In this document: positions 1 through 40,047 of the stretch, in pieces
Layout of the letters: every line of letters starts with the position of its first letter
How positions within the stretch are numbered: the stretch's first letter is position 1
Virus genome (UHGV): UHGV-2079066
From: a virus
DNA length: 40,071 bases
Reading direction: 5' to 3' (one strand)
The notes under the pieces: generated by a model
Told to the model about the DNA's origin: nothing
Databases searched by the model: none
The model's input: the letters and a program-made list of their open reading frames with translations, nothing else
Made by a program: the position numbers and the translations under genes

Positions 1-73
1 ACGTAGCGCAGCCTGGTAGCGCACCGTCATGGGGTGTCGGGGGTCGGAGGTTCAAATCCTCTCGTGCCGACCA
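1..73 (+). tRNA. tRNA-Pro (anticodon GGG inferred); first ~4 nt cut off by window edge
   Basis: seen: D-arm GCGC/AGCCTGGTA/GCGC, anticodon loop A-T-GGG-G-T, T-arm GGAGG/TTCAAAT/CCTCT, acceptor 3' strand CGTGCCG then A-CCA ending at 73. known: pattern matches recalled enterobacterial tRNA-Pro. Anticodon stem has one U-U mismatch, so isotype is not certain. Confidence 0.75.
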
Positions 74-77
74 AAAA
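25..77. repeat. att core direct repeat, left copy (inside intact tRNA 3' half)
   Basis: seen: 53 bp identical to 39995-40047 (cgtcatggggtgtcgggggtcggaggttcaaatcctctcgtgccgaccaaaaa); identity breaks at 24 and 78. Confidence 0.85.
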
Positions 78-89
78 CTCCTTTAAGAA

Positions 90-113
90 CCAGCCTTTAT
101 GGCTGGTTTTTTT
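90..113 (+). terminator. rho-independent terminator after tRNA
   Basis: seen: stem ccagcc / ggctgg with loop tttat, followed by T7 run (107-113). Confidence 0.7.
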
Positions 114-203: not shown

Positions 204-593
204 TCACATCACCGGGCAGTCATCAAACTCCGCGTTCCTGGCATCATTAATGATGTACGTGATCACCCCGAATATAGCGGGTGCAGAACTGTAACCGTCA
301 TCATCTACTGGCAACGCCTCCCTTCTCCCGTTCTCCAGATTAACCAGGTGGGGTTGAGGATGAGTCCGATATCGCTTGATCCTGAATTCCCCGTCTATCG
401 CACATATCAGCAGCGAGCCATCACAGGCTGAAAGTGAGGCATCAACAACAAGCAGCGCCCCCTGAATTATCCCTTCCCTGAAATGTGAACGCGATGCACG
501 CATGAAATAAGTCGCTGCGGGCTGGCTGATTAACTGCTGATCGAGGGAGATTCGTGTTTCAACATAATCTGCAGCAGGTGAAGGAAAGCCCAT
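204..593 (-). CDS. UmuD'-like protein (peptidase S24 fold, UmuD family), begins at the post-cleavage Gly
   Basis: seen: ATG at 593-591 preceded by AAGGAG gives M-GFPSPAADYVETRISLDQQLI...ATYF...ASRSHF...LLVVD...IDGEF, collinear with recalled E. coli UmuD from residue G25 onward. The track ORF extends 6 codons further to a GTG with no SD. Confidence 0.7.
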   Translation of the reverse strand: MGFPSPAADYVETRISLDQQLISQPAATYFMRASRSHFREGIIQGALLVVDASLSACDGSLLICAIDGEFRIKRYRTHPQPHLVNLENGRREALPVDDDGYSSAPAIFGVITYIINDARNAEFDDCPVM

Positions 594-685
594 GATCTGC
601 ACTCCTTTCACTGTTTTTATATACAGTAGTTTTAAAGGGGTTGCAGATCAATGAGGCGACACCTATCAATCTACGCCACCGGGGG

Positions 686-3049
686 TTATTTGAATTTACG
701 AATCAACAACTGAGTGATCCGCACCGTCCTGGCAATGTTTCTCGTTGCGTAAACTCCGCCAATAATCCCACCGCCGCAGAACTTCCCCTGCGTCCAGTCT
801 CCCGTATAGTTCAGGACAGGGGTGTCGATAGTCTCCCACCCGTCGTAGACCTTAACGGTCTGAGTTGTAGGCGAGGTTTTTTCGCAGCGGATGAGGAACT
901 TTCTTGCCCTATCGGTGGGACTATAAACATCGTCTATCCCGGCCTGGATCTGAGGATAGGGAGCGGAACCCTGGTATGGATAGCGCAGCTGTAGCAGGTT
1001 AAATGTTTTCGACGTGGCATACAAAAGCAGGCAATTATCCTCCTGATAATTATCTGCAGCTCCCGAGTTTCGGTTGAGGGACTTCCCGCCAAAGAAAAGA
1101 AAACCCGTATCCGTGTCGAAGAAGCCCTCAACCAGGATTTCAACTTTGTCACCTACCTGTCCAATATCAGCGCAGTTTGTGCCGTCAAACATCTCAGGAT
1201 TCATGAACGCCACGCGGTTATTTGTGGCATCCGCCTCGAAGCGGAAATCGAGAGGCCCGGTTTTCTCCAGCGCATTCACCTGAATATAATTTGGCGCGCC
1301 GTAGTTGTTCACGTAGCCAAAGGTGTCCCTGGCCTTCCAGAACGGATTGAACTCAAACCAGCCGCCCCAGAATGCCCCGAGAACTGTCGCCGATGGCGCG
1401 ATCACCTGGATACGGTTAAGCCCGTATTTCAACTTGGTAAGATAGAATGGACGGTCTGTCGCGTTGATGGCTGCTTCGTTCTCTCCGGTGTCCGGAAGCT
1501 CTTTATCGTAATAGGCGGAAGAGTTACCGAGTGAAAAGACCCTCACGCGCGGCAGCTGGTCGGCTGCATATGTAGATCCAATATTGCTGTTGCCAAAATT
1601 GCGGTATATCAGGGAATCCTGATTACCCTCGCTCCACACGAAGAAGTCAAAGATAACCTCGCTCGCCACATAGTCTGCGGCCTGGATGTACCAGATCCGC
1701 GGGAACCGCGAGTATTTATATCCCTCCGACCCCGTATCAGGAACCCAGCTGGAATTGTAGTCCTTCGAATATCGCATCCGGCTGTCCATCCAGCAGATAC
1801 GCTCAATATCAGTACCGTAGCAGCGAAGAATGTCAGGCATAAACGACTGAGCGACAAAGGACGCTTTCATCGCATGGCCAACGTCCCCCCAGTGCAGGCC
1901 GTCAGGCTGGAGTTCATACTGGTTGGAGTAATCGCTGTTTTTGGACATCCATGTTTTTTGCATGAAGTCCTGATCGATAATGGACACCCCCAGCACCTCC
2001 GCCATGTATTTTTTCGCGGCATCGATCTGGGCTGCAGCTTCTTCATTGTCACGCCCGGAAGTACCAGAGTTCCAGCCGTTGTAGGAGCGCCAGTTTGCAT
2101 CGCAGGTCGTTAGTACGGGTGTGGCGCCGGCTGCGATAACCTTCTTCATGACCTCGATTGTTTGCGCGATATGCTCGGTGATTTTATTTCCTGCGTCTGT
2201 AATATCGTTCAGCCCGAAGCTGATGATCACGATATCCGGGTTAGAAGGAATATAGGGGTTTTGCAGGACGATTTTATCAAAGTAATAATTTACCCAGCCG
2301 TTCTGCATTTGCTGGCCGGAATACCCAGCGTTATAAACGCTAATGTTGTTGTTACGATGGTACTGCCGAAGGATTGTCTGCAGTCTGGCACACCATGCAT
2401 TGGGCGCTTCTGCGTTATGGTCACTGTTGGCCAGAGGTGCAGTGGCCCACGGGAAGCCAGTTACAGGCGTGGTGGGGTTTGCCGTCCACCCCGTGGAGCC
2501 ATTACCATCACCGGTCGAATCGGCTATGCTGGTAATAATAACCGTCTCTCCGGCATGCATTTTTGCTGCCCAGTAATCCAGGGTTTTAATATGTCCCTGA
2601 AATAATGGTGCCGCAGCACTGAGAATTAACTGCCGAAGAGAGGCATCGCCTACGGAGACAAAATGGGAAGAGTCAGTTGTATCCCACGAAGTTTTTGTTG
2701 TCCCGGCTGTTTTATAAGGTGGTTTGGTACCAGCAGACAGCTTATAGAATTCACCGTCATAACGAATCAGCTCATTGTATTCAGAGACAGTAATTATGCC
2801 GTCTTCATAATCTCCAATTACGTCATAGCCCGCATTTTCAATAAAGGTGCGAAATCGCGTTTCCTGATCAGCTATCTGATTATTGAAGTCATATTCCATT
2901 CCACTCCACGATTTACGTATCCGACCCAGCCTGTCGGTCCATGTTTTGTTGGTAATTCCATTTACCGCCTGATCCAGGTTCTGAGCGTTATCACGTAAAT
3001 CGCGTGGGTCAGTTGAACCCGGCGGGTTAAGAGTGTTGCATGGTGCCAT
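686..3049 (-). CDS. tailspike / tail fiber with central SGNH-hydrolase (esterase) domain
   Basis: seen: 787 aa from ATG 3049 (SD GGAGA); SGNH blocks ADSTG (Ser), NAGYSG (Gly), GLND (Asn), DGLHWGD (Asp-His). Last gene of the tail operon. inference: N-terminal ~150 aa is the virion-attachment region. Confidence 0.75.
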   Translation of the reverse strand: MAPCNTLNPPGSTDPRDLRDNAQNLDQAVNGITNKTWTDRLGRIRKSWSGMEYDFNNQIADQETRFRTFIENAGYDVIGDYEDGIITVSEYNELIRYDGEFYKLSAGTKPPYKTAGTTKTSWDTTDSSHFVSVGDASLRQLILSAAAPLFQGHIKTLDYWAAKMHAGETVIITSIADSTGDGNGSTGWTANPTTPVTGFPWATAPLANSDHNAEAPNAWCARLQTILRQYHRNNNISVYNAGYSGQQMQNGWVNYYFDKIVLQNPYIPSNPDIVIISFGLNDITDAGNKITEHIAQTIEVMKKVIAAGATPVLTTCDANWRSYNGWNSGTSGRDNEEAAAQIDAAKKYMAEVLGVSIIDQDFMQKTWMSKNSDYSNQYELQPDGLHWGDVGHAMKASFVAQSFMPDILRCYGTDIERICWMDSRMRYSKDYNSSWVPDTGSEGYKYSRFPRIWYIQAADYVASEVIFDFFVWSEGNQDSLIYRNFGNSNIGSTYAADQLPRVRVFSLGNSSAYYDKELPDTGENEAAINATDRPFYLTKLKYGLNRIQVIAPSATVLGAFWGGWFEFNPFWKARDTFGYVNNYGAPNYIQVNALEKTGPLDFRFEADATNNRVAFMNPEMFDGTNCADIGQVGDKVEILVEGFFDTDTGFLFFGGKSLNRNSGAADNYQEDNCLLLYATSKTFNLLQLRYPYQGSAPYPQIQAGIDDVYSPTDRARKFLIRCEKTSPTTQTVKVYDGWETIDTPVLNYTGDWTQGKFCGGGIIGGVYATRNIARTVRITQLLIRKFK

Positions 3050-3063
3050 TGTATTTCTCCAGC

Positions 3064-3088
3064 ATAAAAAAACCCGCCGGAGCGGGTT
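3064..3088 (-). terminator. hairpin plus U-tract between J-like gene and tailspike
   Basis: seen: minus strand reads aacccgctccggcgggttttttt immediately before the tailspike SD. Confidence 0.5.
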
Positions 3089-3106
3089 ATGCAATTAAGG
3101 GTGTTT

Positions 3107-30845: not shown

Positions 30846-31478
30846 ATGGATACCGTTGGCAGCAGACTGAGATTTAGAAGAAAGCAGAAAAAACTTACCC
30901 AGCGCGATGTGGCTGAGTGGGCAGGAGTAAGCGCGTCTGCTGTGACCCAGTGGGAAAGTGATTTAACAAAACTTTCTGGTGAGAACTTGATATTGGTGTG
31001 TAAATGCCTTCAGTGCTCGCCAGAATGGTTGGTTTTTGGTTCAGGCGATATCGAAAATGGCATTAACATCAACTTGATGTCTGCCAGAGAGGTCCCTCTC
31101 ATATCATGGGTGCAAGCTGGTAATTGGACGGAAGTAATTGGAAATCCTAATAATGAACAAGTGAAAACCACTCGAAAACTTTCTGATTCCGCCTTTGCTT
31201 TGAGGGTTAAGGGAGATTCAATGACTTCTAGCCAGGAGTTGAGTATTCCTGAAGGTTCTATTGTTATTGTTGAACCAGAGTTCGGCTTCGTGGATGAGGC
31301 AAACGGTAAAATTGTCGTTGCTCAAACGGTATCTGGTGGTGAGGCAACTTTAAAAAAGCTGGCGATAGACCCACCGTTTTCGTACCTAATCCCACTGAAT
31401 CCTGCGTTTAAACCCATTGAGGTGAATCAAGAGACCAATCTAATTGGGATAGTTAAACAAATTATCATTGACCTTTAG
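30846..31478 (+). CDS. cI: CI-like repressor (HTH_XRE plus LexA-type S24 autopeptidase domain)
   Basis: seen: N-terminal LTQRDVAEWAGVSASAVTQWE; Ala-Gly in VQAGNW; Ser in KGDSM and downstream Lys. Confidence 0.9.
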   Translation: MDTVGSRLRFRRKQKKLTQRDVAEWAGVSASAVTQWESDLTKLSGENLILVCKCLQCSPEWLVFGSGDIENGININLMSAREVPLISWVQAGNWTEVIGNPNNEQVKTTRKLSDSAFALRVKGDSMTSSQELSIPEGSIVIVEPEFGFVDEANGKIVVAQTVSGGEATLKKLAIDPPFSYLIPLNPAFKPIEVNQETNLIGIVKQIIIDL

Positions 31479-37267: not shown

Positions 37268-38446
37268 ATGGCAGCCAGGCCAAGAAAAAGAGAATACCGC
37301 CATCTACCCGAATATCTAATATTCGATAAAGATCGCGGCGTTTATAAATTTACGCTTATAACTGGGAAAAAAAAGAATATCGGTAAAGACAGGGCTGTAG
37401 CGATCGCTATAGCCCGTGAATACAACCTCAGAATGAGGCCTACAAATGTACCATCAGTAGAAATACTTGTCCGTGAATCTGGCGGTGTAACGGGGGAGGC
37501 AAAACCATTTGCTGAACACGTAGATCATATTATGGAGCGGGCGATTGAGAATGAGCGCCCTTCACAGAATACACTCGACGATTGGAACAACGATGCTCTG
37601 AGGGTAAAAGAATTCTTCATCAGCATACCAGCTTGCGATATTGAGCTGGAGCATGTGAACGCCTATATAAACCACTACCATGCCGAAGCATCAGCAAACG
37701 TACAAAACAGGAAAGTCAGCTTTCTTAAAAAATTATTCTCCTATGCGGTCGATGAATCGCTAATGTTCGATAACCCGGCAACCCGTAAAAAAATGCGTAG
37801 GATAGAAGAGAAGAAACGCCAGCGCCTCTCACTTGATAACTTTAAAGCTATCAGGCGCGCAGCTGAACCATGGTTACGGACCGCGATGGATTTGGCATTG
37901 CAGACAACACACGCACGATTGGAGGTTTCACGGATCCGTTACTCCATAAGAGAGCCTAAAGACGGCATCTGCGGGTGTCTATGGTTAGCACAACCAGAAA
38001 ACGGTATTTATGGGACGCTATACATCCACAGGCAGAAAGTGCAAAAAAAAGAGGCATCTCACGTTGCAATCCCGATTGGGGAAGAGTTGAAGCGGATAAT
38101 TGACGATAGTCGAGATAATGTTGCCAGTCCGTTTGTCGTTCACAGAATCCCAGAACGGCAGGTTAAACGCAGCAAAGAGGTTTCACACCCTACTCAAGTT
38201 GCACCGGATTATTTAAGTCGGTCGTTTTCAGCTACGCGTGACATGCTAGGTTTATGCGACCATCTACCGATGGACGAAAGACCAACCTTTCACGAAATCA
38301 GAGCGCTGGCTGCGCATCTTTTCGATCAGCAGGGTATCGATCCACAAGGGCGAATGGCACATAGCGATGCGAAATCAACAAAGATCTACACGCAAAACCA
38401 TATCGACTGGGTAGTAGTTCCTCATGGCGAGATTCAGACAGCATAA
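37268..38446 (+). CDS. int: tyrosine integrase
   Basis: seen: 392 aa; C-terminal HEIRALAAHLF...KIYTQNH carries the His-x-x-Arg and catalytic Tyr of the R-H-R-Y family; adjacent to att. Confidence 0.9.
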   Translation: MAARPRKREYRHLPEYLIFDKDRGVYKFTLITGKKKNIGKDRAVAIAIAREYNLRMRPTNVPSVEILVRESGGVTGEAKPFAEHVDHIMERAIENERPSQNTLDDWNNDALRVKEFFISIPACDIELEHVNAYINHYHAEASANVQNRKVSFLKKLFSYAVDESLMFDNPATRKKMRRIEEKKRQRLSLDNFKAIRRAAEPWLRTAMDLALQTTHARLEVSRIRYSIREPKDGICGCLWLAQPENGIYGTLYIHRQKVQKKEASHVAIPIGEELKRIIDDSRDNVASPFVVHRIPERQVKRSKEVSHPTQVAPDYLSRSFSATRDMLGLCDHLPMDERPTFHEIRALAAHLFDQQGIDPQGRMAHSDAKSTKIYTQNHIDWVVVPHGEIQTA

Positions 38447-38753: not shown

Positions 38754-38792
38754 AAACCCTGATGGTTGGCGCCGTCAGGGTTTTTACTTTTT
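38754..38792. terminator. hairpin terminator (stronger on plus strand) just past the ImmA-like stop
   Basis: seen: aaaccctgatggttggcgccgtcagggttt followed by ttactttttt on plus strand. Confidence 0.45.
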
Positions 38793-39311
38793 TAACAACT
38801 GCTTTTGATAATCAGCTGCATGTGCGGATACCCCGCATGCTTCAGCAATTTCTTCTACCGACATGTTCCGCAACAATGCTGAATGGCTATATGGCACGAG
38901 CAATTCCCCACTAAAACACTTTGCTTGCCACTCGCTACTTTCAAAAGCTCTAATTTCAACTCCTGGAGCAGCGCGAGCAAAAGCAATATTCTTATGCATC
39001 AGAAGATGCCCTATTTCATGGGCAACCGTCATACGGTCACGGCCATTTCCAGCATGGGCACCTTCATATACATCTTCGCGTAGAATAATTAGTGATTCCT
39101 GAGGCATAGTTAGCCCATGAGTGCCACCCATCTCCTTTTCAGAAGCTGTTTCAAACGAAAAGTTGGGTAAGATCTGCGGTAACGCGAACTCAAGCATTTC
39201 AATCACAGGAAAATACAAATCATGTATCTTCAGCATCGAGCGTAAATTATTAGTTAAACCGCGAACCGCGCTGCGGCTTAAAGGTGGCACTCGATAATCT
39301 TGTCCGCTCAA
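38784..39311 (-). CDS. ImmA/IrrE-family zinc metallopeptidase
   Basis: seen: HEXXH as AHEIGHLLMH; 175 aa; directly downstream of an XRE HTH gene. Confidence 0.8.
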   Translation of the reverse strand: MSGQDYRVPPLSRSAVRGLTNNLRSMLKIHDLYFPVIEMLEFALPQILPNFSFETASEKEMGGTHGLTMPQESLIILREDVYEGAHAGNGRDRMTVAHEIGHLLMHKNIAFARAAPGVEIRAFESSEWQAKCFSGELLVPYSHSALLRNMSVEEIAEACGVSAHAADYQKQLLKK

Positions 39312-39325
39312 ACAGAGCCTCCTAC

Positions 39326-39685
39326 TTATTGTTTTTTAGTTAACAATTCACGTAGACGTTTAAACTCATCATCACTTAGCTCATCAAAGTTGCGTGCAAA
39401 TGCCATCGCTACTTCACGAGCATTTTGATTCTTACCCGAAAGATTAATCTCAACAGATTGTTGAGAATCACGAGCTGCTTTCGCTAACTCATCCCCAGCA
39501 TGAACGCCTTCATTAGTGAAATAATTAATGATGCTTTTCAATACAGGGTCAGTAACAGCCCGCTTTCCTGTTTCAATTGCTGAGAGGTAAGACGAGGTCA
39601 CGCCCATAGCATCAGCCATGCTTTTCAGCGTGACACCGACGTCTATTCGTAATTTCCTAACTTTCTTACCAAACGGCGTTAACAT
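39326..39685 (-). CDS. XRE-family HTH transcriptional regulator
   Basis: seen: KKVRKLRIDVGVTLKSMADAMGVTSSYLSAIETGKR; GAGAGG SD. Confidence 0.8.
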   Translation of the reverse strand: MLTPFGKKVRKLRIDVGVTLKSMADAMGVTSSYLSAIETGKRAVTDPVLKSIINYFTNEGVHAGDELAKAARDSQQSVEINLSGKNQNAREVAMAFARNFDELSDDEFKRLRELLTKKQ

Positions 39686-39994: not shown

Positions 39995-40047
39995 CGTCAT
40001 GGGGTGTCGGGGGTCGGAGGTTCAAATCCTCTCGTGCCGACCAAAAA
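39995..40047. repeat. att core direct repeat, right copy (displaced tRNA 3' fragment)
   Basis: seen: identical to 25-77; upstream flank is not tRNA-like, so this copy is partial. Confidence 0.85.

Follow-up and report, generated by a model that had tools for sequence, protein, structure and literature searches.

The gene at 204-593 on the minus strand of the window (the whole 40,071-nucleotide stretch that was analysed, UHGV virus genome UHGV-2079066) very probably encodes a phage-borne, genetically pre-truncated counterpart of UmuD', carried as cargo by a ~40-kb lambdoid prophage inserted in a tRNA-Pro gene; we put the probability of this reading at about 0.8. The gene is a member of the already described HumD family, and as such it is ordinary and already named. 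The original prediction, which had been made from the letters of the sequence alone, implied that the gene was new. This was not borne out, since identical and near-identical proteins already carry the name HumD in RefSeq. Its central proposal, a ready-made UmuD' that skips RecA-stimulated cleavage and travels as cargo without umuC, is supported: it corresponds to the published description of P1 HumD, and the window protein matches the HumD family over its full length. The coordinates of the features are collected in Table 1.

Table 1. Features of the humD-like locus and of the ends of the prophage (positions in the window).
Feature	Position	Strand	Details	Basis
Left att core	25..77	+	Covers the tRNA-Pro 3' part and 4 nt more; same sequence as the right core	
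humD-like CDS	204..593	minus	129 codons at 207-593, stop at 204-206	ORF translation, NCBIfam match, P1 HumD identity, dN/dS
Shine-Dalgarno AAAGGAG	602..608	minus	8-nt spacer to the ATG at 593	Direct reading
Predicted LexA operator (SOS box), TACTGTATATAAAAACAGTG	609..628	minus	Core CTGT-N8-ACAG at 611-626	
Putative sigma-70 promoter	623..651	minus	-35 TTGATC at 646-651, 17-nt spacer, -10 TACTGT at 623-628	
Tail fibre gene	686..3094	minus	Last structural gene, immediately upstream of humD	PHROGs tail fibre families, Pfam Lipase_GDSL_2
Right att core	39995..40047	+	53-nt perfect direct repeat of 25-77	

The 129-residue product opens M-GFPSPAADYVE from an ATG at 593-591 on the minus strand. In BLASTP, the product and E. 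coli UmuD were 40% identical from UmuD Gly25 onwards, across the full UmuD' core. Met1-Gly2 of the product fall on Cys24-Gly25 of E. coli UmuD and, in a phmmer search against solved structures, Gly2 paired with residue 1 of crystallised UmuD' (1umu). Both a start codon supported by a Shine-Dalgarno sequence and a product beginning at the post-cleavage glycine had been predicted, and the analysis confirmed the two points. The open reading frame as a whole (204-611, minus strand) translates as VKGVQI-MGFPSPAADYVETR..., or in a longer reading as VKGVQI-MGFPSPAADYVETRISLDQQLISQPAATYFMRASRSHFREGIIQGALLVVD...GEFRIKRYR...NDARNAEFDDCPVM. The GTG at 611 was considered as an alternative start and rejected: a start there would lengthen the product by no more than six residues, and this GTG sits on the margin of the LexA operator and lacks a ribosome-binding site. 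In-frame stops are present 17 codons 5' of the ATG. With these stops, and a GTG that gives only six residues, no 24-residue arm can be encoded.

The same start was found across the family. Of the 120 clusters of homologues, 97 have MGFPSPA at residue 1. When species-representative genomes were scanned, 39 loci were obtained, 27 of them with full-length copies, spread over Citrobacter, Kluyvera, Enterobacter, Scandinavium, Yokenella, Klebsiella, Kosakonia, Lelliottia and Erwinia. All 27 full-length loci have the ATG-GFPSP start, and the sequence 5' of the ATG is not conserved. The survey of homologues thus showed the truncated start to be shared (97/120 clusters, 27/27 loci), and no homologue was found to carry a conserved N-terminal arm, a possibility that the original prediction had raised for the upstream GTG. 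Longer entries of 148-223 aa do occur in databases. They keep the same internal Met, and their extensions are unrelated to each other, which indicates that they are gene-calling artefacts. These forms were rejected as evidence for an arm, their N-termini running through the operator or through an upstream 80-aa ORF. Such over-extended calls are plentiful in public databases (P0001, P0002, P0015, P0016, P0019, P0080), one cluster containing 1430 members, and they could mislead searches for an N-terminal arm. Several frameshifted or partial copies were also seen in E. coli, Citrobacter, Kluyvera and Salmonella (L003 4160-4665; L021 5001-5388; L038, L044-L052), some of which adjoin the same tRNA-Pro site as prophage remnants.

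Profile searches placed the product in the HumD family. The NCBIfam equivalog model NF051876 ("HumD family translesion DNA polymerase") matched all of it (residues 1-129 of 129) with 224.2 bits for a cutoff of 120. The score with the NCBIfam UmuD model NF007621 was 92.2 bits, under the cutoff of 110, and that with the NCBIfam LexA model 33 bits against a cutoff of 111. Pfam PF00717 (Peptidase_S24) scored 34.8 bits against a gathering score of 23.3, and PHROGs returned a 'UmuD-like' protein (E=5e-51). The Peptidase_S24 and HumD models, both above their cutoffs, are in line with the UmuD-family assignment of the original prediction. The latter had also envisaged that the domain might align better to the C-terminal domains of phage repressors. 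On examination the product was far closer to UmuD (HumD 224, UmuD 92 and LexA 33 bits), and among solved structures UmuD' (1umu) came top in phmmer with E=3e-23, LexA chains reaching ~1e-4 to 7e-3. No HTH or other N-terminal DNA-binding domain was detected in the product, and BLASTP against the prophage's own CI (30846-31478) gave no alignment. An AlphaFold2 model computed from a 42-sequence HumD alignment had a mean pLDDT of 49.5, too low for use.

Many close relatives of the protein already bear the name HumD. In tblastn searches against phage records, the HumD proteins of P1 and P7 were 72% identical over all 129 residues, followed by those of D6, RCS47, HK140, HK639, phiKO2 (gp23) and N15 (gp26) at 67-71%. 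The nearest database proteins, at 93-98% identity, are from the Citrobacter freundii complex, Salmonella and E. coli, and many of them are named HumD. One 93%-identical gene lies in E. coli Nissle 1917, where recent RefSeq annotation labels it HumD. In the assembly collection, 52 blocks contained an identical protein, which was distributed over at least two kinds of prophage context. The literature was also searched for UmuD-like prophage genes lacking umuC, and no paper on them came up.

The att repeats bound a prophage of ~40 kb. Rfam places a tRNA at 1-70, with its 5' end beyond the edge of the window; ARAGORN found no tRNA in the window because this edge removes the 5' end. The gene set comprises a lambda-like terminase, portal, tape measure and J-like tail, a fibre with an SGNH esterase domain and an integrase, and the CI-type repressor carries an S24 domain of its own. 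A P22-like classification was rejected, as head and tail genes are lambda-like. Since humD, the first gene inside the left att core, lies between this core and the tail fibre gene, it is a cargo gene of the prophage, at the position that had been proposed for it. At the loci encoding the identical protein, the host flank is yejM-side chromosomal DNA. The identical protein also occurs in a second prophage type, adjoining dinI (L007, L010 5438-6390). The host of the prophage is probably from the Citrobacter freundii complex.

Other features of the prophage were noted in passing. The tail fibre protein (802 aa) has an SGNH/GDSL esterase domain at about residues 190-410, and only its N-terminal 160 residues match common tail-fibre families; it may be a receptor-modifying fibre of the polysaccharide deacetylase type. 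At the opposite cargo position (38784-39685, minus strand), between the integrase gene (37268-38446) and the right att core, genes for an M78/IrrE-like metalloprotease (38784-39311) and an HTH_3 regulator (39326-39685) form an ImmA/ImmR-like pair. Just inside the prophage past the left att core, a hairpin, CCAGCC-TTTAT-GGCTGG followed by seven T (90-113, plus strand), was not flagged by the terminator scan; by its sequence it looks like a terminator supplied by the phage for the reconstituted tRNA-Pro.

Upstream of the gene, the CTGT-N8-ACAG core of the predicted LexA box lies 33 nt 5' of the ATG, is the sole copy of this pattern in the 40-kb window and belongs to a box that overlaps the TACTGT of the -10. 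The window and the E. coli umuDC operator agree at every position of a 21-nt stretch, ACTACTGTATATAAAAACAGT. The alignment further showed the same -35 and -10 hexamers, with the same spacing, 5' of E. coli umuDC, the -35 region TTGATCTGC being common to the two and lying 17 nt from the TACTGT -10. Within 609-680, the window and E. coli umuDC (L001 180-260) have in common ATTGATAG, this -35, the 17-nt spacer and the 21-nt operator. The 5' region of the humD-like gene is unlike that of P1 humD. Its homology to umuDC and its difference from P1 suggest that the humD module was derived from, or has recombined with, a umuDC operon. A consensus scan of 1-900 for promoters and terminators flagged nothing; the putative sigma-70 promoter was missed because it scores 8/12, under the threshold of the scan, and we infer that 623-651 is a promoter with a weak match to consensus. 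LexA-like boxes were found 5' of 26 of 27 family loci, either ~35-60 nt from humD or, where the 80-aa ORF intervenes, ~280-300 nt from it.

We also searched for a polymerase partner. In tblastn, E. coli UmuC gave nothing better than E=3 in the window, in agreement with the predicted absence of a umuC-like ORF, and no UmuC match was obtained within 5 kb of the 39 related loci. Of 5426 complete E. coli genomes, 5423 contain umuC, and a host partner is therefore normally available in this species. It is plausible that the humD-like product uses a host UmuC.

Information on function comes from phage P1. In the GenBank record of P1, humD carries the annotation "DNA repair; functionally complements E. 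coli UmuD'", and a LexA binding site is marked 20 nt upstream. According to PMC7092418, P1 HumD is a short, already activated form of UmuD, and PMC9603915 counts humD among the SOS genes under LexA control. In PMC7092418 and the GenBank annotation, complementation of UmuD', dimerisation and binding of UmuC and RecA filaments are reported for P1 HumD only, and we infer a similar function for the window protein by transfer, from its 72% identity. The following scheme can then be proposed. Host LexA bound to the operator, which overlaps the -10, would keep humD off in the lysogen. Upon DNA damage, activated RecA would promote LexA self-cleavage and humD would be transcribed. The product begins right after the position of the UmuD Cys24-Gly25 bond, so that it needs no RecA-mediated self-cleavage. 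Nor is the protease dyad required for this UmuD'-like role. By homology to P1 HumD, its dimer would bind host-encoded UmuC and RecA filaments, and a Pol V-like translesion polymerase would be formed before, or independently of, the processing of host UmuD. P1 HumD was reportedly first characterised by McLenigan et al. in 1999 (J Bacteriol 181:7005), and its complementation is said to have been strong only from a high-copy plasmid, so that the natural role of HumD may not be mutagenesis. A prophage supplying UmuD' without the RecA-dependent activation delay could shift both the timing and the strength of mutagenesis in the lysogen under DNA damage, antibiotics included.

Instead of activating Pol V, HumD might chiefly modulate or antagonise the SOS machinery of the host. 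It could titrate UmuC, pair with host UmuD or UmuD' in heterodimers and so change their proteolysis or checkpoint function, or attach to RecA filaments and thereby damp recombination or induction. The company of DinI, a RecA-filament modulator, which often accompanies humD, points in this direction, as do two features absent from UmuD: the EFDDCPVM tail and a [ST]-H-[FY]-R-E-G motif, conserved in the HumD family where UmuD has its protease motif. In addition, a CRISPRi screen showed humD to be dispensable for the lytic growth of P1 (PMC10695390). However, the region aligned with UmuD' is well conserved, with its 40% identity extending across the core, and P1 HumD is annotated and cited as functionally complementing UmuD'. 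We thus consider a predominantly modulatory role rather unlikely.

The tail just mentioned, NDAR-x-x-E-F-D-D-C-P-V-M, occupies residues 116-129 (window 204-245) and is specific to HumD. Close homologues conserve it to 85-99%, and it can still be made out at 52% identity; it is missing from UmuD and from the UmuD homologues of plasmids. The tail has no role in the ready-made UmuD' model. When the two are anchored at the C-terminus, EFDDCPVM bears a faint likeness to the tip of E. coli SSB (MDFDDDIPF), with three identities and one conservative replacement over eight residues. Conceivably, the tail lets phage HumD make a contact not open to UmuD', such as docking on binding partners of the SSB tip, although on so faint a likeness we regard this as a long shot. 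If true, it would recruit, or misdirect, translesion synthesis at phage replication forks.

We next consider the protease dyad, whose Ser and Lys the original prediction took to be retained. This holds for the Lys, and probably for the Ser. Every alignment puts Lys73 (window 373-375) on UmuD Lys97, and 99 of the 101 close homologues have a Lys here. The position of the Ser varies with that of a one-residue gap. BLASTP, hmmsearch with the HumD profile and hhalign set the gap before Ser36, which then falls on UmuD Ser60, while phmmer and MAFFT set it later and put His37 on UmuD Ser60. Three of five alignments thus give Ser36 = Ser60. Whichever alignment is used, the S-G-D-S-M context is replaced by S-R-S-H-F (window 483-500, residues 32-37). 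Among the 101 close homologues, position 36 is Ser in 74, Thr in 26 and Ala in 1, and position 37 is His in 95, Tyr in 5 and Cys in 1. Distant HumD members have TY, TC or TI as motif, some with Arg, Ser or Met in place of Lys73. From these alignments, the dyad appears to be drifting across a family free of self-cleavage, and the loss of S-G-D-S-M together with this drift is consistent with a protein that has given up self-cleavage. The motif found HumD-wide in place of SGDSM is x-x-[ST]-[HYCI]-[FYWL]-R-[EAC]-G.

The same data bear on the idea that HumD is an active S24 protease working in trans, for instance on host UmuD, LexA or the prophage CI, and that the dyad has been kept for this purpose. 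The Lys73 of 99/101 close homologues would suit such an activity, and so would the three of five alignments that place Ser36 and Lys73 on UmuD Ser60 and Lys97. On the other hand, S-G-D-S-M has disappeared, Thr occupies position 36 in 26/101 close homologues and in the majority of distant ones, any of H, Y, C and I may stand at position 37, several distant members have Arg, Ser or Met at Lys73, and neither phmmer nor MAFFT puts a Ser on UmuD Ser60, all of which makes a protease in trans very improbable. Finally, a promoter and operator homologous to those of chromosomal umuDC and the frameshifted or partial state of some E. coli and Citrobacter copies might be taken to mean that the gene is a functionless, decaying remnant of a umuDC operon acquired by a phage, but this reading, the least credible of all, is already contradicted by purifying selection on the gene (dN/dS of 0.03-0.12 against homologues, where dS is measurable), by the precise start codon conserved in 27/27 full-length loci from many genera, by the occurrence of the identical protein in 52 assembly blocks and at least two prophage contexts, and by the conservation of the family-specific C-terminal tail.

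As P1 HumD has been in the literature since 1999 and a curated NCBI model exists for the family, the interest of the window lies in another well-delimited example of a pre-truncated UmuD' counterpart: a lone gene with its own putative promoter and a umuDC-type operator, beside att. At the level of the family, the survey brings out the apparent drift of the protease dyad and the conserved C-terminal tail. Like the window gene, P1 and P7 humD encode proteins of 129 aa with the MGFPSPAADYVE start, 72% identical to the window protein from end to end, and with the same tail, EFDDCPV[MI]. P1 humD also has a LexA box about 35 nt upstream and no cognate umuC. Whereas P1 humD is carried on a plasmid-prophage beside phd-doc, the window gene belongs to an integrated lambdoid prophage and lies beside att. 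The operator is of the E. coli umuDC type in the window and has its own, different sequence in P1, and the motif ASRSHF of the window protein corresponds to AADSHH in P1 HumD.

HK140_028, the 'UmuD' of HK639, N15 gp26 and phiKO2 gp23 are 67-70% identical to the window protein and have the same truncated start. HK140 resembles the window in having its humD-like gene in the interval from the tail fibre gene to attP, the order being tail fibre, dinI, 80-aa ORF, humD-like gene, attP and int. In HK140 and other prophages, humD is second in an operon behind the 80-aa ORF, divergent from dinI, with the box ~280-300 nt upstream; in contrast, humD of the window stands alone with its own box. This alternative module, with dinI on the opposite strand followed by the 80-aa ORF and humD, was seen in HK140 (L004 2410-3390) and in the second prophage type (L007, L010 5438-6390). 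Its 80-aa ORF has no Pfam match, and the stop codon of this ORF abuts the ATG of humD.

E. coli UmuD' (1umu, 1i4v, 1ay9) shares with the window protein 40% identity, the same glycine start, the equivalent of Lys97 and a umuDC-like promoter and operator. Unlike UmuD', the window protein is made directly and not by cleavage. It lacks the 24-residue arm, GDSM and a downstream umuC, and has an additional conserved tail of ~10 residues. The N-terminal arm of UmuD, with its Cys/Ala-Gly self-cleavage site, is absent from the window protein, and whereas umuD is the first gene of the umuC operon, the window gene is not part of such an operon. The UmuD homologues of IncI and IncF plasmids (MucA/ImpA/SamA/RumA class), which belong to operons with a Y-family polymerase, have the S24 fold and GFPSPA after the cleavage site, with 37-39% identity to the window protein, and the IncF homologue carries the same CTGTATATAAAAACAG box. 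Unlike the window protein, they have full N-terminal arms ending in Ala-Gly, keep G-[DE]-S-M and lack the HumD tail; in the IncI case the polymerase gene comes next.

A further arm-less protein was found on IncX3 plasmids (pNDM5_EBJ001, L011 2259-2857). It is a 118-aa 'S24 family peptidase' with the MGFPSPA start, no arm and no umuC, 43-46% identical to the window protein and without the HumD C-terminal tail. No LexA box was found within 450 nt of this S24 gene. It is preceded by an 80-aa ORF whose size and position are as in the prophage variants, and the ends of the two ORFs look alike in nucleotide sequence. On the IncX3 NDM plasmid, the 80-aa ORF and the S24 gene are flanked by ISKox3 and IS26.
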